Source of the DNA: an uncultured delta proteobacterium
GTDB taxonomy: Bacteria; Myxococcota_A; Polyangia; Polyangiales; Polyangiaceae
Length of the DNA: 64,000 nt
NCBI GenBank assembly: GCA_963696385.1
Contig: CAVOKF010000001.1
Coordinates: forward strand, 4,114-68,113
Reading direction: 5' to 3'
Within the stretch, counting starts at the first letter, position 1. Each line of letters opens with the position of its first letter. The notes beneath the pieces are model-generated. The model did not search any database. It was not told the origin of the DNA and saw only the letters and a program-made list of their open reading frames with translations. Position numbers and translations under genes: made by a program. Positions 14,976 through 47,420 of this stretch are shown in pieces.

Positions 14976-14976
14976 C

Positions 14977-20352: not shown

Positions 20353-20384
20353 GAGCCCCACCCTAGTGGGCCACCGGCCGCTTT

Positions 20385-21539: not shown

Positions 21540-21627
21540 GGCTGTACCGCCAGATGGTAGCCTTATCCGCGAATTCATGCGCAAATCGGCCTTTATGACG
21601 GCGTGGGCTGCCGTTGGCGAAAGGACG

Positions 21628-23412: not shown

Positions 23413-23425
23413 TTGGGAGCCGAAC

Positions 23426-24610
23426 ATGCCGATTCCCGCCGACAACCCGCGCCTGTTCGACTTTCGAATGACCCGTCCGCCGCACGAATCGCCGCAGAGC
23501 GAAGTGCTCGACTGGATCGGCCGTCTTCACGCCACCGCCGAGCGAACGCGATCGCCCGATCCCTCCGCCTTCGACGTCGACGCCTTCCTCGTCCGGCTGC
23601 GTAAGCTGCTGTACCGGTATGGCTGCTCACCGGACAAGATCGCGACACGCGGCTACGAGATCACCGACGGCAGCCACACCCGTTGGGAGGACATGCCCGT
23701 TTACGACGTCGTGCGGGACCCCGAGGGTGCGGGCACGCGCGTCCGAACCGAGCTCTACGCAACCATGGCCGCGGCGGCCGTCGACCGCCTTTACTCCGAA
23801 GACGATTCGCCCCCAGGCGACCTGGTCCACGTCACGTGTACCGGATACGCGTCGCCGAGCGCCGCCCAGCGACTCGTGGCGAAGCGCGGATGGGGCGCGC
23901 AAACGCGCGTCACGCACGCGTACCACATGGGCTGCTACGCGTCGCTTCCGGCGATTCGAATCGCCTCGGGCTTTCTCGCGAGCGCATCGACGGCCCGCGG
24001 GCCGGCGCGCGTGGACATCGTCCACAACGAGATCTGCACCCTTCACCTGCGTCCAGCCGATCACTCGCCCGAACAGTTGGTCGTTCAAAGTCTGTTCGCC
24101 GATGGGCACATTCGCTACTCGGTCGCGGGCGACGACGGCCCGAGCCAGGGTGGCGGGTCGGCTTCGCTCGAAGTGCTTTCGCTGCACGAAGTGATTCTCC
24201 CCGATTCGGCCGGGGGGATCGTTTGGATGGCGTCGGACCACGGCATGTTCATGTCGCTGTCGCGCGACGTTCCGGCGCGCATCGCCGCGGGCGCGCAAGA
24301 CTTCGTGCGGGTCCTGTTTGCTGCCGCCGGTCTCGACTTCGATCGCGAACGGACTCGGGCGGTATTTGCCATTCATCCGGGGGGGCCCAAAGTCATCGAT
24401 GTCATGCAGGCCGCCCTCGAACTGACCGCGGCCCAGGTTTCGGTGAGCCGAGATGTTCTCTTGCATCACGGAAACATGTCGTCGGCCACCCTGCCGCACA
24501 TCTGGATGAGGATCGTCCAAGCGGCCGACGTCCCTGTCGGCACGCCCATCGTCAGCCTCGCGTTTGGCCCGGGACTCACCGTGTCGGGCGGTCTCATGGT
24601 GAAACGGTGA
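23426..24610 (+). CDS. Type III polyketide synthase (chalcone/stilbene synthase family)
   Basis: A 394-aa protein with a GGGAG RBS. The active-site context is GCYASLPAI. It also has HPGGPKVID and a C-terminal GFGPGLT-like motif (AFGPGLTVSG). Confidence 0.85.
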   Translation: MPIPADNPRLFDFRMTRPPHESPQSEVLDWIGRLHATAERTRSPDPSAFDVDAFLVRLRKLLYRYGCSPDKIATRGYEITDGSHTRWEDMPVYDVVRDPEGAGTRVRTELYATMAAAAVDRLYSEDDSPPGDLVHVTCTGYASPSAAQRLVAKRGWGAQTRVTHAYHMGCYASLPAIRIASGFLASASTARGPARVDIVHNEICTLHLRPADHSPEQLVVQSLFADGHIRYSVAGDDGPSQGGGSASLEVLSLHEVILPDSAGGIVWMASDHGMFMSLSRDVPARIAAGAQDFVRVLFAAAGLDFDRERTRAVFAIHPGGPKVIDVMQAALELTAAQVSVSRDVLLHHGNMSSATLPHIWMRIVQAADVPVGTPIVSLAFGPGLTVSGGLMVKR

Positions 24611-25110
24611 TGTGGCAATGGGCGCTGCTCGCGCCGCTCTTGGCTCAGGCGAGCGCCATGGCGTTCGACGAGTTCCATTTCCACCGCCAGAGGGGCCTTG
24701 GCTCCTGGGAGCGCATCGGGCATCCCGTCGATACGCTGATGGTGCTGGCGTGCATCGCATGGGCCCTGTTCACGCGCCCCGACGTTCGCGGCGTGGGGTG
24801 TTACGTCGCACTCGCCCTGGCCTCGAGTCTTTCCATCACCAAGGACGAGTGGGTGCACGCTCGCCATTGCGGCCCGGCCGAGCATTGGCTGCATTCCGTC
24901 CTGTTTCTGCTTCACCCGATCGCGCTGGCGAGTGTCGGCGTGCTCTGGGCCGCAGGTCGTGCGTCCGTGGGCGATTTGCCCGACTGGTGGGCGAGGGCGG
25001 CGCCGGTCGCACGGTGGCTGCCCGCGGCGTTCGCGCTGACCGGCGCGTTCTGGCTGTATCAAGTCACGTATTGGATGGTTCGATGGCCGCGGGACACCCC
25101 CAACTCGTAA
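24610..25110 (+). CDS. Small His-rich integral membrane protein, translationally coupled to the PKS
   Basis: Its ATG shares one nucleotide with the PKS stop TGA (position 24610). It has about 4 TM segments and the motifs DEFHFH, GHPVD, DEWVHARH and EHWLH. Confidence 0.6.
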   Translation: MWQWALLAPLLAQASAMAFDEFHFHRQRGLGSWERIGHPVDTLMVLACIAWALFTRPDVRGVGCYVALALASSLSITKDEWVHARHCGPAEHWLHSVLFLLHPIALASVGVLWAAGRASVGDLPDWWARAAPVARWLPAAFALTGAFWLYQVTYWMVRWPRDTPNS

Positions 25111-25856
25111 ATAATGCGATCTACGCCGCGCTCGGCGAGCGTTGGTACGATGCGTACGACGATCCGGTCGCGCTGCTTCGGGCCGAGTCCACCTTTCGGA
25201 CTCCCTGGATCGCGAAGTCGATCGCTCGCGCCTTCGCCGGGCGGGCGGTTCGAGTGCTCGACCTGGGCTGTGGCGGGGGATTTCTCGCGAACGCCCTCGT
25301 GAAGCATGGCCACGACGTGACGGGGATCGACGCGTCCGAAGAAAGTCTCGCGGTGGCCTGCCGCCACGACGAGACACGCTCGGTGCGTTACGCCATGGGC
25401 GACGCGGCCCGCCTGCCTTTTCCCGACGCGAGCTTCGATGTCGTGTGCGCCATGGACTTTCTCGAGCACGTCGAGGATCCGGCTGCGGTCGTTGCCCAGG
25501 CCGCCCGTGTGCTCGGGGCAGGCGGACTGTTTTTCTTTCATACGTTCAATCGAAATTGGCTCGCCTGGCTGGTGGTGATCAAAGGCGTCGAATGGTTCGT
25601 GAAAAATACCCCACCCGATCTCCACGTGTTGCGCCTGTTCCTCAAGCCGGAAGAAGTTCGCGCCATGTGCAGCGCGCATGACTTGATCGTGGGCGAGTTG
25701 CACGGGTTCGAGCCGGTCATCGCGTCCACCGCATTCGTGCGCCTCCTGGCGACCGGCACCGTACCCAAGGACTTCGCGTTTCGGTTCACCGGCTCCACGC
25801 GCATCGCCTACACGGGGTTGGCCGCAAAGCTCGACGCAGGGCGAAACGACGGGTGA
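25083..25856 (+). CDS. Class I SAM-dependent methyltransferase (UbiG-like)
   Basis: The SAM motif VLDLGCGGGFLA is followed by FDVVCAMDFLEHV. The gene overlaps the preceding gene. Confidence 0.8.
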   Translation: MAAGHPQLVNNAIYAALGERWYDAYDDPVALLRAESTFRTPWIAKSIARAFAGRAVRVLDLGCGGGFLANALVKHGHDVTGIDASEESLAVACRHDETRSVRYAMGDAARLPFPDASFDVVCAMDFLEHVEDPAAVVAQAARVLGAGGLFFFHTFNRNWLAWLVVIKGVEWFVKNTPPDLHVLRLFLKPEEVRAMCSAHDLIVGELHGFEPVIASTAFVRLLATGTVPKDFAFRFTGSTRIAYTGLAAKLDAGRNDG

Positions 25857-25874
25857 GAGCGTGAGGCCGTCTTG

Positions 25875-27740
25875 ATGCGCGCCGCGAGGCTTGCATGCGC
25901 CGTGGTCGTCACCCTCGCGTGGGTGGGCGGGGAGACCGGATGTTCGCGGCATCGGGAGCGCGCGCAAGCCATGGCTCGGTCGATCGCGGGCGGTTCCGGG
26001 CAGGACCCGGATCGATCGACCTCCGCCGCCGAGCCCGAGTCGGTGGCCAACGACGCGGGGCGGCAGCATGCGCCTCGATCCGGGCGTCGACCGCGTCTCG
26101 TCAACCGTGTCGCGTACATCCCGCCGCAGTGTTTTACGAATACGCATGCAGCGGGCGGCGGCCTCGCGAAAAACCCCTGCTACGCGTGCCACACCCGCTC
26201 CGAAGCCCCGAACTATGCCAACGACGACGCTCTCCAGCTGAAGCTGTCGATGCCGGCTGCGGCCAGGAAGAATCCCTGGAGCAACCTGTTCGATCCGCCG
26301 ATCGCGCATGCCCAGCACTTGAGCGACGGCGAGATCCTCGCGTACGTGCGCCACGGCAACTACTTCGACGACCGGGGCAACATCGCGCTCGCGCAGACGC
26401 TCGGCGCTCTTCCAGCCGCGTGGGACGACAACGGCAACGGCAAGTGGGACGGCTATACGCCCGACGTGTGGTTTCGGTTCGACGACCATGGCTTCGACCT
26501 CCGGCCCGATGGGTCGCTCTCCGGTTGGCGCGCGTTTGCGTACTATCCGTTTCTCGGAACGTTCTTTCCGACCAACGGTTCGGCCGATGACGTCGCCATC
26601 CGGCTCGATCCCGCCTTTTGGAAAGACAAGGGCGGACGCTTCGATCGCGCGATCTACGAGCTGAACCTTGCCATCGTCGAAGCGCTCGTGCGGCGGACCG
26701 ACATCGCCATCGATCCGGTCGACGAGACCCCCCTCGGCGTCGACATCGACTTGAACGGCCGTCTCGGCTGGGCGACGCGTGTCGCGTTCGACGCCGCGGC
26801 CGACGGAAGCGGCCGAACCCGCATGCACTACGTGGGCCTCGCCCACGAGGCCGAAGGGTCGTCGGCTTTTCCGATCGCTCCCGGCTTGTTTCCCATGGGG
26901 ACCGAGTTTTTTCACACCGTCCGGTACCTCGACGTCGGCTCCGACGGCGTCGTCACGATGGGGGCGCGGATGAAGGAAGTGCGGTACGCGAAAAAGGTCC
27001 GCTGGGCCAGCTACGAGATCGCGCACGCCCACGCAGCTCGCGAGGCGCAAGAGCAAGAAGAGTCGTCGGACGGAACTCACGACATCCAGTGGGCGAACGA
27101 GCTCGGCGTCTTCACGCGAACCTGGGTGCTTCAGGGGTTCATCGAGAACCGCGATGGCTCGCTGCGCCCCCAGACCTTCGAGGAGACGGCGTTCTGCGCG
27201 GGCTGCCATTCGGGCATCGGGGCGACCACCGACGGGATGTTCGCATTCGCGCGGAAGATCGACGACGCGAGCCGTGCCCGTGGCTGGTTTCACTGGTCGC
27301 AGCACGATCTGCGGGGCATCGTCGAACCGAGGCGCGCGGACGGCGAATACGAATACACCTTTTATTTGCGGCAGGCGGGCGGTGGCGACGAGCTACGCGA
27401 AAACGCCGAGGTCACACGGCGCTTCTTCGACGATCGCGGCGCGTTGCGTCCCGCCGAAATCTCAGGCTTGCACCGCGATATCGCCACGCTGCTCCTGCCG
27501 AGCCCCGCGCGTGCGCTCGACCTCGACCGCGCCTACCGGGCGATCGTCGAGGCGCAGAGTTTCGTGAAAGGACGCGATGCCGTCCTTGCGCCTGCGCGAA
27601 ATGTCGATGTGGACGTCCCCCTCGGTCAATCGACCGGAGTGAGGCAGGCGATCGTGATGGATCGCCTCGCTCCGCAAACGGGTCGTACCGAAAGTGTAAC
27701 GGAATCGTTACCGGAAGCGGGAGCTGAGCCGCCTAGATAG
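25875..27740 (+). CDS. Lipoprotein with two CxxCH haem-c binding motifs, function unknown
   Basis: Signal/lipobox sequence WVGGETGC. The motifs CYACH and CAGCH are separated by about 370 aa. The gene starts 19 bp downstream of the methyltransferase stop. Confidence 0.65.
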   Translation: MRAARLACAVVVTLAWVGGETGCSRHRERAQAMARSIAGGSGQDPDRSTSAAEPESVANDAGRQHAPRSGRRPRLVNRVAYIPPQCFTNTHAAGGGLAKNPCYACHTRSEAPNYANDDALQLKLSMPAAARKNPWSNLFDPPIAHAQHLSDGEILAYVRHGNYFDDRGNIALAQTLGALPAAWDDNGNGKWDGYTPDVWFRFDDHGFDLRPDGSLSGWRAFAYYPFLGTFFPTNGSADDVAIRLDPAFWKDKGGRFDRAIYELNLAIVEALVRRTDIAIDPVDETPLGVDIDLNGRLGWATRVAFDAAADGSGRTRMHYVGLAHEAEGSSAFPIAPGLFPMGTEFFHTVRYLDVGSDGVVTMGARMKEVRYAKKVRWASYEIAHAHAAREAQEQEESSDGTHDIQWANELGVFTRTWVLQGFIENRDGSLRPQTFEETAFCAGCHSGIGATTDGMFAFARKIDDASRARGWFHWSQHDLRGIVEPRRADGEYEYTFYLRQAGGGDELRENAEVTRRFFDDRGALRPAEISGLHRDIATLLLPSPARALDLDRAYRAIVEAQSFVKGRDAVLAPARNVDVDVPLGQSTGVRQAIVMDRLAPQTGRTESVTESLPEAGAEPPR

Positions 27741-27758
27741 CGAAGTCGGAGGAACGCG

Positions 27759-29558
27759 ATGCGATCCCTAGTTCGTGGCGCTCTTATTCTTCTTCTGCCG
27801 GCTGTCGGGTCCCTTGGGACGTTCACGGGATGCAGTTCGAGCACGCCGTCGCCCTCGAGCGATGCAGGAGAGCCGGATGGAACGACACCGGCTGACAGCG
27901 GCAGCGACGCCACAGGCATCGTGGACGCGCACGCCGACTCGTCACCGGACGCGAGCGACGCGGGCGAGAGCGACGCGGCGGATGCGGGCGATGCGGGCGA
28001 GGGCGGCCCGGCGGACGCCGGCGACGCGGGCGACGCGGGCGAGGGCGGCCCGGCGGACGCCGGCGATGCGGGCGAGGGCGGCTCGCCCGACGGTGGGGAC
28101 GGGGGAGCCGAGCTCGCGTCGCTCCAGCACGTCGTCATCATCTATTTGGAAAATCACAGTTTCGATAATCTGTTTGCCAGTTGGCCCGGTGCGGACGGCC
28201 TCGCCGACGCGGGCTTGGCCGTTGCCCAGGTGGGTCCCGACGGCGGTCCTTACGGGACTCTTCCCGAATACGGTCCCTCCGGCGCGGGCATCGAGTCGCT
28301 CGAGGGCGCCTCGATCGCGAACGCCGCGTTCGACCTGACCGCGTACTTCCAGGAGGGCGCGCTCACGAACGATTTGCTCCATCGGTTCTACCAAGAGCAG
28401 GCGCAAATCAACGGCGGCAAGATGGACTCCTACGTGCTCTGGAACGATGAGAGCGCGGGGCAGAGTTTGGGCTACTGGCCGACCAGCTCGCTGCCGATGC
28501 CCCAGTGGATGAGTGCTCATCCCACGTACGTGACCTTGCTCGATCATTTCTTCCATGCCGCATTCGGCGGATCGTTTCTGAACCACTTCTGGCTCATTGC
28601 CGCGCAGAGCCCGACATTCCCGGACGCGCCGGCCGCCATTGTCGCGACGCCCAACGACGCCGGTCAGCTCGTTTCGCCGCTCGACACGACGACGTCTCCC
28701 CCGAGCGAAGTCTACAACTCGTCCAACGCCGACGGCCAGGTGACGCCCGACGGTTACGCCGTCAACACGACCTATTCGGTCAACGAGCCGCATCCCCCGG
28801 CGTTCGACACCGGATCGAGCAACCCGACGCATCTCTTGCCGCAGCAGACCTTCACGACCATCGCCGATGAGCTCGACGGAGCCGACGTGAGCTGGGCTTG
28901 GTACGCCGGGGGTTGGAACGACGCCCTGGCGTATGCCGGCGTCGCTTCGGTCGGCACGGATGCGGGCAGCGAAACCATCCTGGGTGGAACGGCGGAGGTG
29001 CTCAATATTTTCGAGTACCACCACCAGCCGTTCGTCTACTTCAAGAACTGGGGCGGTACGGCGGCGGACGGTGGCGTGGCCGGTCCCGGCACAGTCCCCA
29101 ATGGCAAGTGGGCCGTGAACCATAACCTCCAAGACGAAGAAGACTTCATTGCCGCCGCGGCGGCTGGAAAGCTGCCCGCGGTCTCGTTCGTCAAGCCGCT
29201 CTTTGACGAGCACCCCAACTACACGACGGAGACGGATAGCGAATCGAACACCGTCAGTCTCATCAACGACGTTGTCAACGGGCCGCAATGGAGCAGTACG
29301 GCCATCATCATTACGTATGACGAAAACGGCGGCTTTTGCGACCACGTTCCGCCGCCGACGACCGACAAGTGGGGTCCGGGCACTCGTGTTCCGGCCATCG
29401 TCATCTCGCCGTTTGCCAAGGGGGGCGTCGACTCGACCCCGTACGACACGACCGCGATCCTCAAGCTCATCGAGAAGCGGTGGAGTTTGAACGCGCTCGC
29501 GACGCGGGATGCCGCCCAAAACGACCTGTCGGCCCACGCGCTGAACTTCGCGCCCTAA
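27759..29558 (+). CDS. Phosphoesterase family protein (non-haemolytic phospholipase C / AcpA acid phosphatase-like)
   Basis: GGAGG RBS. The VVIIYLENHSFDNLF motif is characteristic of the family. The N-terminus has a lipobox and D/A/G-rich repeats. Confidence 0.8.
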   Translation: MRSLVRGALILLLPAVGSLGTFTGCSSSTPSPSSDAGEPDGTTPADSGSDATGIVDAHADSSPDASDAGESDAADAGDAGEGGPADAGDAGDAGEGGPADAGDAGEGGSPDGGDGGAELASLQHVVIIYLENHSFDNLFASWPGADGLADAGLAVAQVGPDGGPYGTLPEYGPSGAGIESLEGASIANAAFDLTAYFQEGALTNDLLHRFYQEQAQINGGKMDSYVLWNDESAGQSLGYWPTSSLPMPQWMSAHPTYVTLLDHFFHAAFGGSFLNHFWLIAAQSPTFPDAPAAIVATPNDAGQLVSPLDTTTSPPSEVYNSSNADGQVTPDGYAVNTTYSVNEPHPPAFDTGSSNPTHLLPQQTFTTIADELDGADVSWAWYAGGWNDALAYAGVASVGTDAGSETILGGTAEVLNIFEYHHQPFVYFKNWGGTAADGGVAGPGTVPNGKWAVNHNLQDEEDFIAAAAAGKLPAVSFVKPLFDEHPNYTTETDSESNTVSLINDVVNGPQWSSTAIIITYDENGGFCDHVPPPTTDKWGPGTRVPAIVISPFAKGGVDSTPYDTTAILKLIEKRWSLNALATRDAAQNDLSAHALNFAP

Positions 29559-30192
29559 GTCCACCGCCCCCAGAGCCAGGGGTCAGCCGGGCGTCGCGAG
29601 CGATTCGAGGCAAGGAAGGCCGAGCGACGCAGCGAGGCTGACCGACGCGTCGAACCGCGCAGCAGCCTGTTGAGCACGGTCTCAGGCGCCCCCACCGCCG
29701 ACTCGCGGCCGGCCCGGATGGCTTCCGCCGTCCGGGTCCGGGGATCTCTCCCGTACGGCCGAGGCGCGCCGCTGCAACAGTGGGCGCACGATCGTCGGAT
29801 GCGCGTGCCAGGCGCGGTCGTCACCGCTGAGGCCGTTCGGGGTCGAATCACACCCGGGGCTCGCCTGCTGGCAACAGGACGCGCGGGTGAGCCCCGGCCG
29901 CGCCCCCGGGGCGCGGGCAAGGCGCGGGGCTAATAATGGCCCAAGAGCCCGCCCGAGGCCTGCCGCGGCCTATCGTAGGCGGCGCGTTTGGGGCGCCTGT
30001 GGAGGGCGGCGTCGCCTGCGCGGAAATGGTCCTCCACGGCTCGGCCGGCGGTCGAGCTATCGGACCGTTCCATTTCGGCTGCCCACCGAATGTACAGGAC
30101 AGGGCGGCCATCTTCCGATAGTAACGTCGCGACTCGTGCCGAAGTCGCTCCACGCGCAGCGCCTTCGTGCGTGTTCATAAGGAGTAGAGCAA

Positions 30193-37420: not shown

Positions 37421-37444
37421 GGGCGGGTTGTTTTCTTAGACTTC

Positions 37445-37641
37445 GATCACCCGGACCACCCTGAGCGTTCGCGCTGCTTTACGATCACCCGCGATACCCT
37501 GAGCGTTCGCTCCGCCTCGACTCGCTTCGCTCGCTCGGCTTCGCTCTCGCGGACCCGGCCCGCACGACACGTCGAGGGGAGCGAATGCCGCTCCCCTCGA
37601 GCTCCCCAGCAGGCCCAGCAGGAGACGAGACGGGTACCCGT
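37445..37641 (+). repeat. REP/MITE-like hairpin-rich repeat, copy A
   Basis: Shares a long near-identical core with 39831-39996 (same orientation) and 44734-44985 (inverted). It contains a 12-bp perfect stem (37572-37583 with 37589-37600) and the palindrome gacgggtacccgtc. Confidence 0.85.
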
Positions 37642-37783: not shown

Positions 37784-38044
37784 ATGGAGAGCGTTGAGAT
37801 CATCGTCTCCGTGGCGCTTCCGAGTGCCGCTCTCGACCGCGAGCCTCCCGATGCGATCCAACGTCGGTTACGGTTGCTGTGGGCGCTGGATGAAATTCGG
37901 GCGGGGCGTCTCACCCGAGTGCCGGGCGCCCGGTGGCTCGGTCTTTCGCTTGATGACTTGCTGGCGGCGGCGGGTGAGCACGGCCTTGCCGCGTTCGACT
38001 ACGAAGCAGACGACTTTCGCTCCGAGCTCGCTTCGCTGACGTGA
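37784..38044 (+). CDS. UPF0175-family antitoxin-like protein
   Basis: An 86-aa protein with LWALDEIRAGRLTRVPGARWLGLSLDDLLAAAGEHGL, which is UPF0175-like. Its stop overlaps the GTG of the next ORF. Confidence 0.65.
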   Translation: MESVEIIVSVALPSAALDREPPDAIQRRLRLLWALDEIRAGRLTRVPGARWLGLSLDDLLAAAGEHGLAAFDYEADDFRSELASLT

Positions 38045-38125
38045 TCGTGGTCGCGGACACGACGCCTCTGCTCTATTTGTCGCGCATCGGCCGACTGAAT
38101 ATTGCGCAGGCGCTCGACGCGGTTC
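38041..38125 (+). pseudogene. DUF3368 (PIN-like) toxin gene truncated after about 28 codons
   Basis: VIVVADTTPLLYLSRIGRLNIAQAL matches a DUF3368 N-terminus. The frame then runs into the inverted-repeat arm at 38125 and loses similarity. Confidence 0.5.
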
Positions 38126-38131
38126 TGCTGG

Positions 38132-38198
38132 GGGGCTTTGCCCATAAAGGCCGCCTCGGCCCGTCTTTTACGGGCAGCGGGCGATCTTGCCCAGAAAG
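38132..38198 (+). repeat. Left 67-bp inverted-repeat arm of the island
   Basis: Matches the reverse complement of 44667-44733 at 65/67 positions. Confidence 0.9.
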
Positions 38199-38290
38199 TC
38201 GAGCGATGAACCGAAGCCGCCGATCTGATACGACCATTCTCTATGGCCGAGCCGCTATCGCCGGACAAGGACTGAGCGAGCGGAGTGCTA

Positions 38291-38686
38291 TCACTTCGAC
38301 TTACCGGAAGAACTTGGCTGATTTTTCGGCGAAGGAGGCCGGTCGCCGATGATCTCCTCAACTCGGTACAACTCTGACGGAAGGCACCGACCGCAGTTGC
38401 TCGTTACTGCCGCCTCGCGAGGGAAGCTAACGCCACCTCTATAGAAGTAGGTCGGCTTCGAAAGTCCGAGCACTCGGCCGGTATGGCTATTGGGGCCAAT
38501 GGCAAGACACGCTTCTTGCCGTTGCGTACCCGTACCAACGACGACGAGCCACCTATCCGATTGATCCGGATCGCCATCGCGCGCCGGCATCTTGCGTACA
38601 ACTATTGCCGGCCGATATTTGTCGGCTTGAACCCAAACGCAATCACCCGGCGCCAATGTCCGGGTCACCGAGCGGGGAGTACACAT
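38291..38686 (-). CDS. Possible PemK/MazF-fold toxin
   Basis: LAPGDCVWVQADKYRPAIVV..RWLVVVGTGTQ resembles the MazF/PemK pattern GDxxxVxF..RPxxVv..vvPxTs. The start is uncertain (ATG 38686, or a downstream GTG/TTG). Confidence 0.4.
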   Translation of the reverse strand: MCTPRSVTRTLAPGDCVWVQADKYRPAIVVRKMPARDGDPDQSDRWLVVVGTGTQRQEACLAIGPNSHTGRVLGLSKPTYFYRGGVSFPREAAVTSNCGRCLPSELYRVEEIIGDRPPSPKNQPSSSGKSK

Positions 38687-39401
38687 CCTTGCCGCTGGCG
38701 AAGGCTTCGCGGCGCCAGGTCTCGATCTCACCCTGATCGAAAGCGGGCTTCGTTGGTCCCTGCGCAGCCGCAATCAGGTTGGCAAGAAACTCGTTCACTC
38801 CGTCAGCGAGGTGGCGGGCGAGGGCTAGGGCGAGCCACGGTTCGAGCCTCTTCCCCAAGTTGACTGCTCTAAAGACCCCGATGGCTGCGACGATCGCCTT
38901 CGACAGCGCCAACATCGCGCGGCGCATCTCGAGCGGCGCATCGGTGTCGTAAAACATATCAACGGGCGTGTGCGTCGCACGCGCCATCTCGCTTGGTGAC
39001 GCTCGCTGAATCACCGGGACCATGGCCCTCGCAAACGAAGCCATGTGCTCCCACCCTCCGCAAAAAATCTTCATCGGCTCTTCGCCGAGCGTTCGGCGAA
39101 GAGGTGGGCTGAAGCGATCTAAAATCCAGTGACGACGACGCCGCGCCCGCTTGAGGGTCGCTTGGTTGGGCAACGACCTGACCCAGAACGACGGGTCGCA
39201 CGCGACCAGCTCCAATCGCTCCGACAAGTCGTCAACGCTTGACGCCTCCAGAACATTGTCCGCGAACGCATCGAAGTGGCACTGCAAGGCTCTCGCGGTC
39301 GCATTCGCCAAAGCACGGTCGTCCGGTCGCGGCTCGAAGAACCCCAAGAGCAGCGACAGCCCCAAGTTGTCTGCGGCAGCTACAGCGTTCATCGTCTGCA
39401 T
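38643..39401 (-). CDS. Hypothetical 252-aa protein whose 3' end overlaps the MazF-like ORF
   Basis: An open frame with helical-looking composition. No motif recognised. Confidence 0.5.
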   Translation of the reverse strand: MQTMNAVAAADNLGLSLLLGFFEPRPDDRALANATARALQCHFDAFADNVLEASSVDDLSERLELVACDPSFWVRSLPNQATLKRARRRRHWILDRFSPPLRRTLGEEPMKIFCGGWEHMASFARAMVPVIQRASPSEMARATHTPVDMFYDTDAPLEMRRAMLALSKAIVAAIGVFRAVNLGKRLEPWLALALARHLADGVNEFLANLIAAAQGPTKPAFDQGEIETWRREAFASGKDVYSPLGDPDIGAG

Positions 39402-39776
39402 CCGAAGTTCACGTCGTCGTGACCCACCTCAATCATGCGTCCCGCCCGTCGATCGAAGCCGGTGCATGGCGAGCGGAACGACCAGCGACGCACTCGTAAA
39501 TTTTGCCATCGCCATCGCGATTGTCGAGGGCACCGGAACGTACACGCGGTTGGCCGTTGCTATCAAGCGTTACAGAATAGAGCCACTTTCGCTCAGTGCT
39601 ACGCCGCGTGCCGCTATATGACCTACGCTTGACGTTACGAATCGGCGCGACGAAAAATGTAAGCCGCAGCGTCCTACACCGCACCGTGGCGGGAACTCAG
39701 CCGGATTTTGTCTACATTGTGGGCGTCCACTAATCATTAGGCTGGACGTCCACTGGTCATACGCCGGTCATACGCG

Positions 39777-40050
39777 ATTTATGGGCATCGCATCGATTTT
39801 ACGGGCAGGTCGCGTTTTATAGGCAAAGCCCCCCAGCAGGAGACGAGACGGGTACCCGTGTTGATGCGATCACCCGCGACACCCTGAGCGTTCGCTCCGC
39901 CTCGACTCGCTTCGCTCGCTCCGCTCCGCTCCCGCCGTACCACCGGGGCTCACGTCGAGGGGAGCGAAGGCCGCTCCCCTCGAGCTCCCCAGCAGGGCTT
40001 TGCCTATAAAACGCGGCCTGCCCAGAAAAGCGGCAAGCTGCCCAGAAAAA
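39777..40050. repeat. Internal tip-to-tip pair of island-end-like repeats separated by REP-like copy B (39831-39996)
   Basis: The reverse complement of 39777-39834 aligns with 39995-40050. Both have the tip GGCTTTGCCTATAAAACGCG, then TGCCC(GT/AG)AAAA and TGCCCA(T/G)AAA at equal spacing. Confidence 0.8.
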
Positions 40051-40361
40051 GGCGTCGGCCGCGCCGTGTCGATAATCGACAGCAGTAGCGTGTATTGTCG
40101 GACGATGACGCTAAGTGCAACATCGCATCTAGATGTCGGAATAGTTCAATATTTCTGCGGTAAGATGTCGTAGCCATCAATTGCTGCACAATTGATCGCC
40201 AACTTTCCGCCTACGCGAAATGGCTCAGCTCGGGGTGGTTCGCGAAACCAGGATCACGCGTGGTCATTGGCGATGTTTGAAGCTCCTGTCGTTCCTGATA
40301 GTTGCAGCTCGTCCGATCAAATCTGTGGCGCATGCGTCGATGATAGCTTATTCCATGGACC

Positions 40362-40955
40362 ATGCGATACGAGGTCCTGACAAGAGACGGTGTCCGTATA
40401 GTGGCGTCGTCTCCAGCCGATGCCGTTGCGTTGGCGAAGGCCGTAGCAGAGGACGAGGCGGCTTCGCAGAAGAAGGCGCGCCGAGCCGTTAGTGGCTCGG
40501 CCAATGGCCACGCGCCGACCGCACCACCGGCTAACCTTTTCGAGAACGAGGACACTGAGGAGTTGAACAGCCTTGGTGCCTCCTCCGAGGTCAAGCAATA
40601 CTGGACGAAGCTAAACTTGGCCCAGCGTATGGCGCTGCGTTCGATCATAAGATCTCCGAACGGCGTCGCACTGGAGGAGATTCGTTCCGCAGCCGACCTT
40701 GCGTCTACCCGCGAGACTTCTGTCTTGTTGAGCCAGTGCGCCAGAGTAGCCGGCAAATGTGGGATTAAGCTGGTCCGATCTGGCCACGTTCGAGATCCGC
40801 GGTGCGCGCGAGCAGCGCACATCCGTCTACTTTCCAGGACCCCTACTTCGCCGGCCGGAGGAAGCACCGACATAGGCCACCAATCCGCCAGTGGCGGAAT
40901 TCAGACAAAGAAAAGCCGCGACAACATTAGAGTTTGCGGGCCGGTGGCGAAGTAG
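40362..40955 (+). CDS. Hypothetical protein (197 aa)
   Basis: An ORF in the low-G+C region. No motif recognised. Confidence 0.4.
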   Translation: MRYEVLTRDGVRIVASSPADAVALAKAVAEDEAASQKKARRAVSGSANGHAPTAPPANLFENEDTEELNSLGASSEVKQYWTKLNLAQRMALRSIIRSPNGVALEEIRSAADLASTRETSVLLSQCARVAGKCGIKLVRSGHVRDPRCARAAHIRLLSRTPTSPAGGSTDIGHQSASGGIQTKKSRDNIRVCGPVAK

Positions 40956-41236
40956 GAACGCGTCGGAGCTGCCACTCCGATACGAATCGGTGCGATCCCG
41001 ATCCGGCCCTTTTCACTCAGTTATCGCGGCTTTACGGCCCGGACGGGGTACGGCCGAGACGTTTCGCAGCAGAACGCCTTGTTTCGTAGCACGCCCTCCG
41101 CACGGGCGCTCGAAAACCGCGTGCGTGCGGAGAGGAAAGGTGTGTTGTGCGGTCACATGACCGAACGTTATTACGGATAAGTTGAGATCCAAGATGTAAT
41201 CCGGCCCGGTTCGGCGAAAGCCTTGAGCCGGGCGGT

Positions 41237-41431
41237 TCACTTGTCTGCCTTTCGCTCTGCTTTGGCGGCGCGGATCAGGCGCTCGACAGCCCACGCGCTG
41301 ACAGTGATGCCCGCCGACGAGGCAGCTTCCTTGACGAGCGCGTCTTGGTCCGGCGTCAGCCGAACGCGAAGGAAGACGGTACGCCTTGCCTCGTCTGGCT
41401 TTCGCCGTTCGATCGCCTTGGACTTCGCCAG
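41237..41431 (-). CDS. Ribbon-helix-helix protein (DUF1778/CopG-like) lacking a canonical start codon
   Basis: My translation is (CTG)AKSKAIERRKPDEARRTVFLRVRLTPDQDALVKEAASSAGITVSAWAVERLIRAAKAERKADK*. There is no ATG, GTG or TTG in frame back to the upstream stop at 41480-41482. Confidence 0.45.
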   Translation of the reverse strand: MAKSKAIERRKPDEARRTVFLRVRLTPDQDALVKEAASSAGITVSAWAVERLIRAAKAERKADK

Positions 41432-42578
41432 AGCGGCGCGGCTGACGGTTACGTCGTGGACGTCGCGGTCGGCAAGTGCTCATGCCCCGACCACGAGACG
41501 CGGGCGGTCAAGTGCAAGCACCAATGGGCCGTGGAGTTCGTTCAGAAGCAGACGACGATCGAGACGATGACGAACGCGGATGGTACGTCGACGGTCCGCG
41601 AGACGACGCGCGAGGTGCGGGTGAAGTACACCCAGAATTGGCCAGCGTATAACGCAGCCCAGACGACCGAGAAGGAACACGTCGGCCGGCTTCTGCGCGC
41701 GCTTTGTGATGGCATCCAAGAGCCACCGCAGGCGCGTGGTCGCCCTCGTCTGCCGCTCGCCGACGTCGTCCACGCCGCCGCGATGAAAGTCTACGTTGGC
41801 ATGTCCGGTCGGCGCGCCTCGACAGACGTCCGGGAATGCGCGGAGAAGGGCTTGATCGCGCACGCCCCGCATTACAACGCCGTGTTTTCGTATCTCGAAC
41901 GCGCCGAACTTTTCCCGCTTCTCAAGACGCTAGTGGAAGAGAGCGCGTCGCCGCTCAAAGTGGCAGAGCGGAGCTTCGCCGTCGATTCGACGGGCTTCGC
42001 GACGAGCACGTATGCGCGATGGTTCGATCACAAGTGCGGGCGCGAGATCAAGGAGCAACGCTGGATCAAGTGCCACGCGATGGTCGGCGTCGCCACGAAC
42101 GTCGTAACGAGCATTGAAGTGACTGACGGCGCTTCCGCCGATTGCCCGCAGCTGCCGAGGCTCGTCGCCGCGACGGCGCGGAACTTCACAATCGCGGAAT
42201 GTGAGCGCCGACAAAGCGTATCTCGCGCGAGCCAACATCGACGCGATCGAAGCTGTCGGCGCCGTGCCTTACATCCCGTTCAAATCGAACTCGAAGGGCG
42301 ACGGTCCCGCAGCGTGGCGCCGAATGTTCGCGCTCTTCACGCTCGAGCGTGAGCGCTTCCTATCGCGCTATCACGCTCGGTCGAACGTCGAGACGTCGTT
42401 CTCAGCGATCAAGCGGCTCTTCGGCGGCGCGGTGCGCGCGAAACTCCCGACGTCGCAGAAGAACGAGGTGCTTCTGAAGTGCCTCGTGTTCAACCTGACG
42501 TGCCTCGTCCACGCGATGCACGAGCTTGGGATCGAACCGACGTTCGGGCCAATCGAGAACGCGAGGTTAGCGTCGTGA
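41345..42578 (+). mobile_element. IS4/IS5-superfamily DDE transposase gene with an N-terminal SWIM zinc finger, frameshifted near 42200
   Basis: The SWIM motif is CSCPDHETRAVKCKH. The DDE context is AVDSTGF .. SADKAYL .. YHARSNVETSFSAIK (Y-2-R-3-E-6-K signature). ORF 41345..42352 and ORF 42201..42578 join as ..NFTIAE/VSADKAY.. only after a 1-nt shift. Confidence 0.7.
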
Positions 42579-42886
42579 GCGACCTGACGGAGGATCAGCA
42601 GGAGAACGTCCGCGCCGCGCTCCGATTCTTTCGGACGCGATCGGGAAGCTGGGAGCCCATCGGCCGCGCGCTCGGGTTCGGAAAGATGACGCTTTCGCTC
42701 GTCGCGAGCGGAAACAAGCCCGTCAGCCCGAAGATGGCGTTCCGCGTGGCGAAGCTGGCAGGCGTCGGCGTGGATGACGTGCTCGCCGGGGAGTTCCCAG
42801 CGCCAGGGACGTGCCCGATGTGCGGGTATCACAGAATCAAGGGCGCCGAAGATTTTGGCGGAGCGTTGATCCACGTCGAGACGTAG
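42576..42886 (+). CDS. XRE/Cro-like helix-turn-helix protein with a C-terminal CxxC
   Basis: A GTG at 42576 overlaps the transposase stop. The HTH-like stretch is IGRALGFGKMTLSLVASGNKPVSPKMAFRVAKLAGVGVDDVLAG. Confidence 0.5.
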
Positions 42887-42888
42887 CG

Positions 42889-43431
42889 TTAGTTCGACAC
42901 CGCACCGCTACCCGGATCAGTGGGCGTGATGGACACGTTTTTAGTGAATTCGCTGATGATTTTGTATTTGCTCTGCAGGCGCCACAATGCGATTCGCGCA
43001 ACCGCATAGTAGCTCGACATGAGAAGGACGCAGAGAACGATGGGCCCAGTAGCCATCGCAAGCACGATCAAGGTCCACGTCCATGGGGCCAACCGCGAGC
43101 ACTCCCTCTCGCCGTTGACGGCCGCGCATACCAAGAGCAGGATCAGACCGATCACGCATATGACAGCCAATACGAGACATGTCCGCTGGCACCACGACGT
43201 GCGCCGCTCCAGTTTCGCTGGCACCACTGCAATCTTCGCGGTCTCATTCTGAATGGCCGCCGAGTCGCTCGTGAATCGGTCAAGCACGATGGCCCTCAGA
43301 CCATCGGCCGTGGCGACGAGGGAGGCCCTCACGCGAGCCGTAATAAAGCCTCTATAATGCTCCAAAATTCCGAACGCAAAATTGACCGCGATACCCGCAT
43401 CCGCGAGGTGGGTCAGAGATTCGATTCGCAC
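42889..43431 (-). CDS. Two-TM membrane protein, function unknown
   Basis: GTG start with a GAAGG RBS. An N-terminal soluble region of about 85 aa is followed by the TM segments CLVLAVICVIGLILLLVCAAV and WTLIVLAMATGPIVLCVLLM. Confidence 0.55.
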   Translation of the reverse strand: MRIESLTHLADAGIAVNFAFGILEHYRGFITARVRASLVATADGLRAIVLDRFTSDSAAIQNETAKIAVVPAKLERRTSWCQRTCLVLAVICVIGLILLLVCAAVNGERECSRLAPWTWTLIVLAMATGPIVLCVLLMSSYYAVARIALWRLQSKYKIISEFTKNVSITPTDPGSGAVSN

Positions 43432-43478
43432 CCTTCGTCTGCCCCCTCTCGTATGCCAGGGCGTAGCCCGTGCGTGAA

Positions 43479-44084
43479 CTAGATGGCTCCGGCAACCGGC
43501 AGCATAGCTGGATGTGCCATTACAAACGCGCGGTCGAATGTAGAAGCAAGTTCGGACGCCACGCGGGGCTCGTTGAAGTTTGCGATTGCGGACGTGCTCG
43601 AATGATCGGTCTCGAATCTGTACCCGACGCTGTCCATGACAGCGATGTGCTTCGCCGCGTTCGTAGCATATGCGCCACGCGCGAATCGAACGAGCAAGCC
43701 TGTGGATCCGCCATGCAAACTGGTCGCCGCCTTGATTAGCGGGCGCTCCAAGAGATCGGCTAGCGTGTTCTGGATGAGAATCTTCAGCGTTGCGCCAGGC
43801 TTCCTTAGAAATCGCGTGGCCGCCTCAATGAGAAACGGCGCGTTGTACGTGCTTGGCGACAGCGAGCCCGTGAAGATGCGCATGTCAGATGTTGCGCGTT
43901 CGAACATTGCTTCCAGCAGGATGGCCGCATGGATTGGCTTCCCGTTCGGGATGCGTTGGTCGATCTGACCCGTTGCGAGTTTGAAGATCAGCTTTCGGTA
44001 CTCGATGACCTCTGGCGCTTGTAGAGCCTGCGCCATCTCAGCCAGTTCGCGCCGAACCTCCGATGGATCTCGTTCGTGCGCCAT
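43479..44084 (-). CDS. Hypothetical cytoplasmic protein (201 aa from the ATG at 44084)
   Basis: A GGGAG RBS lies 5 nt upstream of the ATG at 44084. The gene is 47 nt upstream of the 2-TM gene. No motif recognised. Confidence 0.55.
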   Translation of the reverse strand: MAHERDPSEVRRELAEMAQALQAPEVIEYRKLIFKLATGQIDQRIPNGKPIHAAILLEAMFERATSDMRIFTGSLSPSTYNAPFLIEAATRFLRKPGATLKILIQNTLADLLERPLIKAATSLHGGSTGLLVRFARGAYATNAAKHIAVMDSVGYRFETDHSSTSAIANFNEPRVASELASTFDRAFVMAHPAMLPVAGAI

Positions 44085-44388
44085 TGCTCCCAATCCTCTC
44101 TGCGTCCGCCGATCGCGAACGGTTTGCTTATACCATGCCATACGGCCGTCAAGATGCCCCCAAGAAGGGGGCCCATCGCGCGTAGCAATGTTCGAGCGCA
44201 CTTAGCTGAAAAGGCCAAGTAATTGAACATTTTACGCGCATAGATCGCAATCGCATCCTTCTGGATGCTGAGGCGCCCGGCGCGCCCGGCCGCGCGAGGT
44301 CATCCGGACCAACGGCGCGCCAAAGAAGGCTGGGTAGCGACCCGATCCGCGACGAGGTTCGTGATCGGCCACTTCTGAAATTGCTCAG

Positions 44389-44586
44389 TCACGGACCTGG
44401 AAGGCGACGGTCGATCTCGTCGGCAAACTCCTTCAGCTTGCCCTGGACGATCGGGTTCGTATGGTCATCCTTCATCTTGTCTAGCTGACAATGCATCCGC
44501 AGCGACATGAAGCCGGCCAGCAGATCGCTCGTCTTGAACGTCCGAGGGTCCCACGCGGATATCGTCTTCTTGTATTCTTCGCTCAT
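44389..44586 (-). CDS. Small hypothetical protein (65 aa)
   Basis: An ORF with ordinary composition and a weak RBS. Confidence 0.3.
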   Translation of the reverse strand: MSEEYKKTISAWDPRTFKTSDLLAGFMSLRMHCQLDKMKDDHTNPIVQGKLKEFADEIDRRLPGP

Positions 44587-44666
44587 CGTGCGAGCGTACC
44601 CGTGGGAATGATTTCGGCCTCCTCCACCGGCAGCATCTGCCGCGAATCGCTCCTCGGTCGATCAGC

Positions 44667-44733
44667 CTTTCTGGGCAAAATCGCCCGCTGCCCGTAAAAG
44701 ACGGGCGGAGGCGGCCTTTATGGGCAAAGCCCC
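44667..44733 (-). repeat. Right 67-bp inverted-repeat arm of the island
   Basis: Its reverse complement matches 38132-38198 at 65/67 positions. Confidence 0.9.
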
Positions 44734-44985
44734 TGCTGGGCCTGCTGGGGAGCTCGAGGGGAGCGGCATTCGCTCCCCTCGACGTGTAGCGGGCCCCGGT
44801 ACGGCGGGAGCGGAGCCGAGCGAGCGAAGCGAGTCGAGGCGGAGCGAACGCTCAGGGTGTCGCGGGTGATCGCAAGGCCGTGCGAACGCTCAGGGTGTCG
44901 CGGGTGATCGCAAGGCCGTGCGAACGCTCAGGGTGTCGCGGGTGATCGCAAGGCCGTGCGAACGCTCAGGGTGAGCCGGGTGACC
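44734..44985 (-). repeat. REP/MITE-like repeat, copy C (inverted relative to copy A), with a 38-bp sub-repeat array
   Basis: gggtgatcgcaaggccgtgcgaacgctcagggtgtcgc starts at 44864, 44902 and 44940, a period of 38. The core is homologous to copy A, including the cgaggggagcg/cgctcccctcg hairpin. Confidence 0.85.
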
Positions 44986-46996
44986 TGGGACTTAGCGCCA
45001 CCCCGCGGAAGTATTCCGTGCCGCCCGCGCTGGCGACGGCGACGACGCTCGATGTCCCGTTCCAGGGATTGGACACGCCGTCGTCCGTGAATACGGCAAT
45101 TCGGTTGGGAATCTCGGCGGCCGTGGTCGCGATGAGCGTGACCTGCGAGCTGCCGGTCTTCAACCCTGCAAGACCTCGAAAGCCGACCGCCGCCGCTCCG
45201 CCGTCGGCCGACGGCAGCGTCAGCGTCGCAGTTTGCGTCCACGTCCCTGCGACGAGGGAGAATCGTGCGATCCCCAGGGCCTGACCGCTGACGAGTGTGT
45301 CGTCGGCGACGTACAGGGTGTCCGGCCCTGAGCCGCTTGCCCTCAGGTTGACGAAGACGAATTGCCAGGGGCTCGCCGACGTCGACGACACGGTCGGTAG
45401 GCCCGGCAGTGTGGCGAGCGCCGGCGAGCCGCCGTCGGGCAAACCCGCACCGACCGAGAACACTTCGCCGGCCGTCGTGTCGCCGCTGCCGTAGAGCTGA
45501 CTGTCGTAAATGGTCAGCAGGCGGACCGCGGTCGGGTTGAGCATCATGCCGTCGACGACGCCGAACGGGATGTACCAGATGCCACCGGTCGTTCCTCCGT
45601 CGACCGTGCCACCGAGACCGCCCACCCAGAAAGAAGTCCCGTCGGCCGTGACGGAGCTGCGGATGCTGTTCGCACCGTGGAATGCGGCACTCGAGAATTG
45701 CGTCGAGGTGTCCACGTTTCCGGCCGAGTCGATGCGTGCGACGACGATCGTATCCGCCGAATTGGCGGGATTGGCCGTGCCGAGCGCGGCGTTGTAGCCG
45801 GCCATGGAGAGGTACCGGCCGTCCTGCGATCGGGACAGGCCTGCAATCGCAGCGATTCCAGGCATCGTGAGCAGGTCCTGTCCGGCATCGGGGACTCCCG
45901 TTGGCAGTGCGACGGGGGCCCCCACGAGTCCGCCATCGGACACGAGGCGCTGCTCGATGAAGACGGGGGCCGCGACGGCCGTCAGGACTCCGCCGTCGGT
46001 CGCACCGATTCGCACGACGTCGAACGTGAACGGAACGCAGGCTCCGGCGCCGTTGCAGATGTCGCCCGCCCCGCACGACGTTCCCTCGGCCGTCTCGGCA
46101 ACGCCGCACAGACCCCCGGTACAGGTCGGGACCGAGCAGATCGTGTCTTGCCCGGGACAGTCCGACGCCACAGCGCACTGGGGCTCGCAGGCGATCGTGG
46201 CGGACAGTGAAGTGAATGCCACACCCGTACACGCACCACTATCGACCAGGCCGATGCTCACGGTCACGGTCACCGTGGTGCCCGGAGTCGAGCATAGGAA
46301 CTCCGGCGCCAGGGACGTAGCGCCCGGCCCGCCGTCGACGGGGTTCACGAAGCTGCCGCCGGTCGGCGGAGTCACGCTCCATTCGACGGTCGAGGGGGCG
46401 CTGGCCAGGACGCCGAGCTGCGCGCCCTGGCCGACCGCGAGTGCGGCCGGATTGATTGAAAAGGAGGCGATGGCGGGGCAGAGGATGGGGGGCTGGTTCA
46501 CCAGGATGACGCCGGCGTCGACCGCGAACGAGCCGGTCTGGATGTCGGCGTTGAGGCTGGCGTCGGTCGGAACGGTACAGGTGACGAGGAGGGCGACGTT
46601 CGTGATCTGACCCGCCACGACCCCGAATGGGTTCGAGGATCCCGCGCAAGGATCACCCTCGCTGTCGACGCCGAAAACGGAAATCGTGTAGCCGGATCCC
46701 GCAGCGATGCCTCCGGCGACGAATTCGACCGATTGTGCGTCGCCGATCGGTTCGACTCCGCTGTACGAGTTCGGTCCCGAGATCGTCCAACCCAGCGACG
46801 CCAAGGTGACCTGGGTGCCGATCGTCAAAGTCGCACCGACCGCCCCGGTATCGCCTCCGAGGCCCGGGTGGCCGCTGCCGGTCGTGCCCGTCGGATTGCC
46901 TCGATCCGGGGTCCCTTCGCGTGGGCTCGAACAGGCGAGAAACAACGCCCCTGCCATCATCAGCGAAGCGAAGAAGACCTTGGCGAGTCGTGTCAT
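44966..46996 (-). CDS. Large secreted lipoprotein, function unknown
   Basis: From the ATG at 46996 the protein reads MTRLAKVFFASLMMAGALFLAC (lipobox). It has Ig-like and Cys-rich regions. The last codons and the stop lie inside repeat copy C. Confidence 0.7.
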   Translation of the reverse strand: MTRLAKVFFASLMMAGALFLACSSPREGTPDRGNPTGTTGSGHPGLGGDTGAVGATLTIGTQVTLASLGWTISGPNSYSGVEPIGDAQSVEFVAGGIAAGSGYTISVFGVDSEGDPCAGSSNPFGVVAGQITNVALLVTCTVPTDASLNADIQTGSFAVDAGVILVNQPPILCPAIASFSINPAALAVGQGAQLGVLASAPSTVEWSVTPPTGGSFVNPVDGGPGATSLAPEFLCSTPGTTVTVTVSIGLVDSGACTGVAFTSLSATIACEPQCAVASDCPGQDTICSVPTCTGGLCGVAETAEGTSCGAGDICNGAGACVPFTFDVVRIGATDGGVLTAVAAPVFIEQRLVSDGGLVGAPVALPTGVPDAGQDLLTMPGIAAIAGLSRSQDGRYLSMAGYNAALGTANPANSADTIVVARIDSAGNVDTSTQFSSAAFHGANSIRSSVTADGTSFWVGGLGGTVDGGTTGGIWYIPFGVVDGMMLNPTAVRLLTIYDSQLYGSGDTTAGEVFSVGAGLPDGGSPALATLPGLPTVSSTSASPWQFVFVNLRASGSGPDTLYVADDTLVSGQALGIARFSLVAGTWTQTATLTLPSADGGAAAVGFRGLAGLKTGSSQVTLIATTAAEIPNRIAVFTDDGVSNPWNGTSSVVAVASAGGTEYFRGVALSPRSPGSP

Positions 46997-47420
46997 CGCG
47001 GCTCCAACGATCTGCGCCGCGCCCCCAGGAACGTGGCCGCCCCGCACCAACGCGCAGCTGGTTCGAATTAGCACGAACACCCGTGGCGTTTTGACGAACT
47101 CATCGCGACGATTTGTGTCACCCATCCAAACACGCGGCTCGCGCGCCCGGACGCCCTTCGGGGACACGTCTGCCATCGGTGAACATTTGCTTCGGAACCG
47201 GGTATTTGCCGAATATTTGCCGAGGGAGGCTTCGCGACTCAGACCCTCTCACCGCCAGCCCAATGCCCAAATGCCGGCCGGCCGTGTGGCGACGCGCAAC
47301 GGGTGCGCCTGCGTGCATCCTTGTGCGGTCCGGCCGTCCTCGCCTCAGGACGGCGGAGGGGATTCTGCCTGGCGGCGCCGTGTGGGATGTTCAGGCACGG
47401 CGCGTGCCTGGCGGCCGGTC

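Follow-up and report, generated by a model that had tools for sequence, protein, structure and literature searches.

Organization of the locus

The window analyzed here comprises 64,000 nucleotides (positions 4,114 to 68,113) of contig CAVOKF010000001.1 from an uncultured member of the Polyangiaceae (GenBank assembly GCA_963696385.1), and all window coordinates below count from its first base. A preliminary description of this DNA, made from its letters and open reading frames (ORFs), proposed a single low-G+C island of 6.6 kb at 38125-44739, bounded by 67-bp inverted repeats, inserted into a toxin gene and ending in sequences that matched no recognized insertion sequence (IS) or transposon. 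The segment is instead two decayed IS5/IS903-like cargo transposons, elements A and B, in an array of a repeat (repeat X) resembling the repetitive extragenic palindrome (REP), and not a novel kind of island.

Element A (38134-39830) has two overlapping genes and no transposase. Element B (39996-44731) carries, in order, an end of type T2, gene B1, a tRNA-like gene, a ribbon-helix-helix (RHH) regulator gene on the minus strand, a transposase pseudogene and a helix-turn-helix (HTH) gene on the plus strand, three minus-strand cargo genes, and an end of type T1. Element A has the layout T1...T2, in the opposite orientation to B, so that the elements lie tail to tail with 165 bp of repeat X between them. 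The ORFs listed in the preliminary description all exist, and its view of the segment as foreign, transposon-derived DNA is supported. The drop in G+C on which that view partly drew is real (0.599 in A and 0.604 in B versus 0.661 and 0.679 in the flanks) but modest, and the 45% figure first given for the interior is a local extreme.

Four ends of two types

The 67-nt inverted repeat (38132-38198 versus 44667-44733) matches at 65 of 67 positions (97% complementary), as first described. Its terminal 16-mer, GGGCTTTGCCYATAAA, for which shuffled sequences give an expectation of 0, occurs at four places in the window: 38133 (+), 39831 (-), 39995 (+), and 44732 (-). The submotif TGCCCRNAAA is present in 10 copies versus 0.58 expected, and all 10 are within the ends, in agreement with the original proposal that the arms are genuine multisite transposon ends. 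By alignment, the four ends fall into two types, the outer pair (T1) being 97% alike and the inner pair (T2) 81% alike. The T1 end of A (38134-38198, plus strand) is the left arm of the preliminary description and has direct sites at 38139-38148 and 38188-38197 and an inverted site at 38167-38176; the T1 end of B (44667-44731, minus strand) is the right arm. The T2 ends of A (39778-39830, minus strand) and B (39996-40049, plus strand) each contain three direct TGCCYANAAAA boxes, at +6, +24, and +44 from the terminus. As there are four end sequences and not two, the segment consists of two elements and a 165-bp spacer, and the 67-bp inverted repeat pairs the T1 ends of these two elements. The arms are therefore ends of the same type that belong to different elements; A and B both have a T2 end as well, and the arms do not delimit a single island.

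All four ends, and those of all relatives described below, begin with GGCTTTG. A Tn3-family assignment, suggested by an apparent GGGG start, was rejected: with the extra Gs assigned to the flank, the terminus is GGCTTTG, and neither a transposase nor a resolvase of the Tn3 type is present.

Family architecture in complete relatives

Homologues of the element B transposase are found between both ends in six complete elements from unrelated genomes (L002, L082, L042, L127, L155, and L156). In all six, a T2 end with direct sites at +6, +24, and +44 lies upstream of the transposase gene and a T1 end with sites at +6, +34 (inverted), and +55 lies downstream. The site positions are identical to the nucleotide among these elements, and the sites read TGCCYANAAA (the repeated site of the family ends is also given as TGCCCANAAA). 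It is this T2...T1 template that leads the 67-bp repeat to be read as T1 of A against T1 of B, and element B has the complete layout of the family. Direct repeats of 10 bp flank the elements in L002 (GTCTCGCACC), L082 (CTCGCTCCGG), L042 (TACTCGTATG), and L156 (CCGCACTGTC), and one of 9 bp flanks that in L127 (CCGAGACCG). An 8-bp duplication with one extra terminal base pair was considered and rejected, as it would require mismatched termini in L042 and L156.

The closest relatives have a divergent 64-aa RHH (NikA-like) gene, with a palindrome between the RHH and transposase genes, and a translationally coupled HTH/CxxC gene, the first bases of which overlap the stop of the transposase gene. 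Family elements are 3.4 to 4.7 kb long with two to six genes besides the transposase, and all carry passenger genes. The passengers that could be identified in complete relatives are, as judged from their sequences, restriction-modification systems: a 918-aa type IIG restriction-modification enzyme in L156, a BsaWI-like nuclease with a methylase in L155, and an N6 methylase in L082. On another contig, a methylase-nuclease fusion and a SocA/Panacea protein are found near family copies.

A scan of genomes with the end 16-mer yielded four real relatives among the 119 loci listed, swamped by chance matches. Three contigs carrying transposase relatives (L154, L155, and L156) are IMG/VR contigs classed as viral. 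An archaeal metagenome-assembled genome (MAG) contig of 36% G+C has an end-like sequence (L081, 2380-2468) with four direct TGCCYAYAAAG boxes spaced by ~20 nt, and its 6.6-kb locus contains no transposase homologue. Proteins of 283 to 290 aa with faint DDE_Tnp_IS1 matches are encoded beside the family transposase in L003 (4331-5203) and beside homologues of the element A genes in L144 (1083-1934), which hints at a further shared passenger gene.

Transposase of element B and its inactivation

The pseudogene at 41432-42578 (plus strand) encoded an IS5-like transposase with SWIM and DDE domains (DDE_Tnp_1) and has suffered both a frameshift and an N-terminal deletion. When its two frameshifted halves are joined, the ORF encodes a 410-aa protein. 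Both halves match PF01609 (DDE_Tnp_1) above the cut-off, and the joined protein has >6000 homologues of ~405 to 412 aa, many with a SWIM zinc finger (PF04434) preceding DDE_Tnp_1. The closest non-self homologue in a search of 5.8 billion proteins is 78% identical. Intact relatives score 121 to 135 bits against the NCBIfam model transpos_IS5_2 (model positions 3-287), below its 140-bit cut-off; the two pieces in the window reach 50.8 and 68.5 bits. Named plasmid-borne members of the IS5 family share ~30% identity with the transposase.

The +1 frameshift lies near 42198 and recurs in an independent short-read contig. The deletion, of ~180 bp, removed the promoter/operator and ~33 N-terminal codons of the transposase. 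It occurred at a 4-nt GCCA microhomology (41425-41440), fused the RHH start codon to approximately codon 34 of the transposase and changed that start codon to CTG. The RHH (NikA-like) gene itself (41240-41431, minus strand, 64 codons) is 78% identical to the RHH gene of L003 and matches the Pfam NikA-like family at 1.6e-7. The HTH gene (42575-42886, plus strand), with a C-terminal CxxC motif, starts within the transposase stop (GTGA). The same 4-nt overlap is found in L002, L004, and L127, and the gene product is 50 to 52% identical to those encoded after the transposase in L002 and L003-L005.

In a functional member of the family, the transposase would act by DDE cut-and-paste, its N-terminal region would read the repeated sites of the ends, and the RHH protein would regulate its own transcription through the palindromic operator. 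The frameshift and the lack of a working transposase had been recognized correctly in the preliminary description, as had the lack of an integrase, since none of the scanned cargo ORFs matched one. No intact close copy of the transposase is known, and for that reason both elements are probably immobile now, as stranded fossils.

Cargo genes

Element A carries A1 (38643-39401, minus strand, 252 aa) and A2 (38291-38686, minus strand, ~131 aa), which overlap by 44 nt. A2, called MazF-like in the preliminary description, is conserved in three homologues and has no Pfam match even at an E value of 10 and no sequence match in the PDB. An N-terminal GD..W/YV...RPA..VV-like pattern was noted by eye only, and an AlphaFold2 (AF2) model built from a four-sequence alignment has a predicted local distance difference test (pLDDT) score of 40, unusable for a fold search. 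A1 likewise has no sequence match in the PDB. Homologues of A1 (249 to 250 aa) lie upstream of A2 homologues on two other contigs (L142 and L144), where the pair is 72 to 79% identical and has no arms. A1 and A2 therefore form a portable module. Element A was also considered as a deleted copy of an L002-type element, a candidate rejected because a BLASTP comparison between the cargo in the window and that of L002 gave no significant similarity.

In element B, B1 (40362-40955, plus strand, 197 aa) has no family match. A short-read contig from the same sample (L006) lacks the T at 40771, which gives a B1 of 170 aa versus 197 aa with an altered C terminus. In element A, protein P0147 from another Logan contig points to an A/T run of different length near 38323-38327. 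Either assembly indel errors or population variants may account for both differences.

The tRNA-like gene (40938-41010, plus strand) scores 44 bits against Rfam RF00005, whose gathering score is 29. It has a full cloverleaf, an anticodon loop of 6 or 8 nt (GCC-like), an atypical T loop and no CCA, and ARAGORN calls it "tRNA-???" with no anticodon assigned. A different tRNA-like gene (1886-2003, plus strand; 43 bits), with anticodon GCU and a 47-nt variable arm, occupies the same slot in the closest relative, L002; none is present in the other relatives.

The remaining cargo is a cassette of three minus-strand genes. The first, B7 (44389-44586, 65 aa), has no family match. B6 (43479-44084, 201 aa) belongs to DUF7931 (Pfam, 3.6e-9), a family of 1044 representative clusters. 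Its AF2 model (pLDDT 93.8) is matched by Foldseek with a probability of 1.0 to Nuc (1byr), NucT, Zucchini, and phospholipases D, with TM scores of ~0.5 to 0.58, and TrmBL2 was also matched. The model thus predicts a phospholipase D superfamily fold for B6. The catalytic HxK(x)4D motif is absent from B6 and from DUF7931, whose consensus is HFxVMD...YRFE with no lysine at +2. Neither B6 nor the DUF7931 profile has a sequence match in the PDB, literature searches for DUF7931 found nothing, and the best DUF7931 homologue lies on contigs too short to show whether the 65-aa/DUF7931/two-transmembrane-helix cassette is shared. B5 (42889-43431, 180 aa) has two transmembrane helices and weakly resembles SLATT and effector proteins, with an E value of 0.053 to NCBIfam SLATT_1 (13.5 bits versus a cut-off of 41, and thus below the profile cut-off) and of 0.04 to the PADLOC "2TM effector".

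The cargo is thus largely uncharacterized, as was first stated. PADLOC gave nothing significant for any cargo protein and recognized no known defense system among them. The cargo probably serves addiction or defense, and relatives carry restriction-modification systems.

Repeat X

Every element junction lies in repeat X, which is built of 38-nt subrepeats, a hairpin with a 12-bp stem and a terminal CCCCAGCAGG motif. The left copy (37444-37641, plus strand) contains two 38-nt subrepeats, the hairpin TCGAGGGGAGCGAATGCCGCTCCCCTCGA, a CCCCAGCAGG-CCCAGCAGG doublet and a 19-nt tail. The right copy (44732-44983, minus strand) is inverted, abuts the T1 end of B and contains 3.6 subrepeats; these form its distal part (44837-44983), in which head-to-tail units with 97% matches overlap the stop of a 736-aa ORF (44966-47176, minus strand). 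The spacer between the elements, X' (39831-39995, plus strand), is a circularly permuted X with one 38-nt unit: the motif and 19-nt tail are followed by GTTGATG and by the body of a next unit up to CCCCAGCAG. It forms direct repeats with the left copy and inverted repeats with the right copy.

Members of the X family occur in seven metagenome contigs, often as 137-nt tandem units. Two metagenome contigs, L151 and L152, are 91 to 95% identical to the window over 14615-29559 and contain three tandem X units of 137-nt period (2033-2473 and 5864-6304, respectively), versus ~15 nt at the corresponding window site (20390-20406). Close relatives thus differ by the gain or loss of X arrays. X is hairpin bearing, intergenic, multicopy (three copies in the window), tandem, and variable in presence, and is thus a genuine REP-like intergenic repeat of the REP/bacterial interspersed mosaic element (BIME) type, polymorphic between close relatives. 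An integron, a clustered regularly interspaced short palindromic repeat (CRISPR) array and a known RNA were each rejected as explanations of X, since Rfam finds only the tRNA-like gene in the window and X consists of spacerless 137-nt tandem units. As a separate observation on L151, its BLAST matches to window positions 22555-23047 are staggered by ~96 nt, which points to an internal tandem repeat in a 1007-aa ORF (20422-23445, minus strand).

Junctions and inferred rearrangement

Read from flank into element, the junction 9-mers are CTGCTGGGG at both T1 and T2 of element A, CCCCAGCAG at T2 of B, and CCCAGCAGG at T1 of B. The flanks of A are thus reverse complements on one strand and not direct repeats, and those of B are inverted copies of the motif with a one-base offset, so that neither element is a simple insertion as now placed. 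X runs in minus orientation in the outer flanks and in plus orientation in the inner spacer. If the interior is flipped, the X sequences become a tandem array of minus-oriented units, each holding one element. In this arrangement, the flanks of T2(A) and T1(B) pair at 9 of 10 positions (CCTGCTGGG[G/C]) and restore a complete X unit organized as in the left copy, with the tail identical at 28 of 28 nt, while those of T1(A) and T2(B) share a perfect 9-mer. This pairing, together with the rebuilt unit, implies that a single inversion exchanged the ends of A and B. Under this reconstruction, both elements would have landed in the CCTGCTGGG motif of adjacent X units, and a later inversion with breakpoints inside both elements would have swapped their partner ends. 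The most likely cause would be recombination between the 97%-identical T1 arms.

The left boundary adjoins a toxin-antitoxin locus. An intact UPF0175 antitoxin-type gene (37784-38044, plus strand, 86 aa; Pfam PF03683, 26.4 bits, just below the 27.9-bit cut-off) is followed by a 5' fragment of a PIN-like DUF3368 toxin gene (38041-38133, plus strand). Homologues of the UPF0175 gene, 58 to 87% identical, adjoin an intact DUF3368 gene; the pair in the window is incomplete, with 25 to 30 codons of the toxin left. In the preliminary description, similarity to DUF3368 ended exactly at the left arm after about 28 codons. It does end nearby, but similarity is secure for only 25 codons, to 38115: tblastn with the DUF3368 protein of L139 gives 88% identity over residues 1-25 (38041-38115), and 18 nt (38116-38133, GACGCGGTTCTGCTGGGG) intervene before the arm. 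These 18 nt resemble the boundary of an X unit, and in L151 the sequence CCGCG(C/G)GTTCCTGCTGGGG stands before X units. The three Gs before GGCTTTG are neither part of the element, which has a two-G terminus in L002, nor the expected continuation of DUF3368.

The toxin gene is indeed truncated at this point, but direct insertion of a transposon into it is not borne out. X-motif bases abut the arm, no direct duplication is present, and tblastn finds no 3' remainder of DUF3368 elsewhere in the window. This combination suggests that the junction is secondary, and we infer that DUF3368 was truncated at the boundary between X and the element by a later event and not by a clean insertion.

Alternative explanations

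Taken as a whole, A and B are probably two tail-to-tail members of one small unit-transposon family related to IS5/IS903 that were later rearranged by inversion. Several observations weigh against parts of this interpretation. All four junctions contain the CTGCTGGG motif, which blurs every argument based on duplications, and the outer T1/T1 flanks (TCTGCTGGGG versus CCTGCTGGGC) match at 8 of 10 positions within this same repeated motif. The window holds no intact copy with its own target duplication, so that the membership of A and B follows from similarity of ends and genes. The target duplication may be of 9 or of 10 bp (four relatives show 10 bp and L127 shows 9 bp), and the RHH and HTH genes are not universal, being absent from some relatives (e.g., L156). 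The inversion follows from orientation logic, and no uninverted relative was seen. Furthermore, no empty site was found, as exact-protein look-ups of the flanking genes returned only short contigs from the same sample. Which protein binds the end sites, and the mobility of the family, are likewise deduced from sequence.

The same outer flanks are what a single composite transposon would predict. In such a scheme, the whole 6.6 kb (A, spacer, and B) moved by its two outward T1 ends, in the manner of Tn903, to the boundary of DUF3368 and X. The T1 arms are 97% identical and face outward, the outer flanks carry CTGCTGGG in direct orientation with 8 of 10 nt matching, and a permuted X' spacer is the expected capture between elements inserted in adjacent tandem X units. 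Nevertheless, the normal pair of ends in the family is T2 with T1, the duplication is imperfect and falls in a motif that recurs at every junction, and the rebuilding of a complete X unit by the T1(B) and T2(A) flanks would be a coincidence. In addition, no second copy of the A-X'-B block was found by the 16-mer scan of the window or the search for transposase homologues. We consider a composite origin unlikely.

The repeats themselves offer two further explanations. A 7.5-kb invertible or mobile segment, with the UPF0175 gene inside it, could have its real ends at the inverted X copies at 37444-37622 and 44732-44910. These copies form a 179-nt inverted repeat, 90% complementary, that brackets everything described here, and X arrays come and go among close relatives. 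The drop in G+C, however, begins at ~38000, inside the X copies, no recombinase or transposase is associated with X, and X in relatives forms simple tandem intergenic arrays, so that this explanation is very improbable. Even less credible is that the arms are themselves an intergenic repeat of the REP type, ubiquitous and unconnected with mobility, an outcome that the preliminary description had named as one that would overturn it. A genuine REP-like repeat does adjoin every arm and is widespread in relatives, but the arms are distinct from it, number only four in 64 kb, and have equivalents that, with target duplications, flank a homologous transposase in six unrelated genomes.

Comparison with known transposons

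The end sequence, which had seemed to match no known element, has a terminus in common with named members of the IS5 family. The terminal repeats of ISRusp1 and of a Klebsiella plasmid IS (GGCTTTGTTGCGCAAAGG and GGCTTTGTTGCACAAA, respectively) both start with GGCTTTG, and that of IS903 (GGCTTTGTTGAATAAATC) also begins with these bases. The window arms thus carry the terminus of the IS903 group of the IS5 family. Other features are shared with this group: the DDE_Tnp_1 catalytic domain aligns over its full length, and the GGCTTTG ends are followed by an A/T-rich TGYYNANAAA box. A target duplication of ~9 bp may be a further one. Unlike the IS903 group, the transposases of this family, at ~30% identity and just below the NCBI curated cut-off, have ~100 extra N-terminal residues that include the SWIM zinc finger. 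Each end has two additional subterminal sites in an arrangement that differs between the ends, and duplications are mostly 10 bp. Moreover, the elements are 3.4 to 4.7 kb with passengers (and RHH and HTH genes in the closest relatives), whereas members of the IS903 group are single-gene IS of ~1 kb.

With one transposase, short terminal repeats and a few passenger genes inside, the elements resemble "transporter IS" and small unit transposons, among which the SWIM-bearing group and its end architecture have no known description. Three spaced 10-nt sites per end and unequal ends that give the element polarity recall Tn7, Mu, and Tn5053-type ends, but the transposase here is an unrelated IS5-type DDE enzyme, and there is neither a TnsC/MuB-like ATPase nor TGT...ACA termini. 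Tn903 likewise has two IS903-like elements in inverted orientation with outer ends facing outward; here, no more than 165 bp of repeat DNA separates the two, both elements have their cargo within them, and there is no clean outer duplication. Some IS target REP/BIME repeats, IS1397 being an example, and all four junctions at this locus fall in a single motif that borders a tandem intergenic repeat with a hairpin. Relatives, however, insert in unrelated sequences, so that any preference is local and not a rule of the family.

A wider interpretation is possible, although we hold it tentatively and at somewhat less than even odds: that these elements belong to a very large undescribed group of IS5-related unit transposons with polar three-site ends, RHH/HTH partners, and a bay for conflict-gene cargo. 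The group would comprise >6000 transposases over many bacterial phyla, with the end-like sequences in an archaeal MAG and the copies on viral-classed contigs. Its cargo bay would move restriction-modification, toxin-like, and other conflict genes, and tRNA-like genes in one subclade, and the RHH and HTH partners would recall the two-protein PIF/Harbinger elements of eukaryotes. No description of the SWIM-bearing family was found in the literature searched, a search that did not extend to ISfinder and leaves "undescribed" unproven. The family nevertheless appears to be undescribed and deserves description. It combines a SWIM-bearing transposase and accessory regulators with polar ends of three sites each, duplications that are mostly 10 bp, and cargo of restriction-modification or other genes.

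Significance

For this locus, an island with unexplained ends gives way to an ordinary account of two dead transposons in a repeat, rearranged later. For the family, the comparison points to a large IS5-superfamily branch, unnamed so far, whose members behave as small cargo transposons, often with restriction-modification systems. The branch falls just under the NCBI curated threshold for IS5, and such elements are therefore probably left unannotated; their fixed asymmetric three-site ends provide a simple DNA signature with which to find them and delimit their cargo. If this reading is true, the family would be an additional vehicle that spreads defense and addiction genes.

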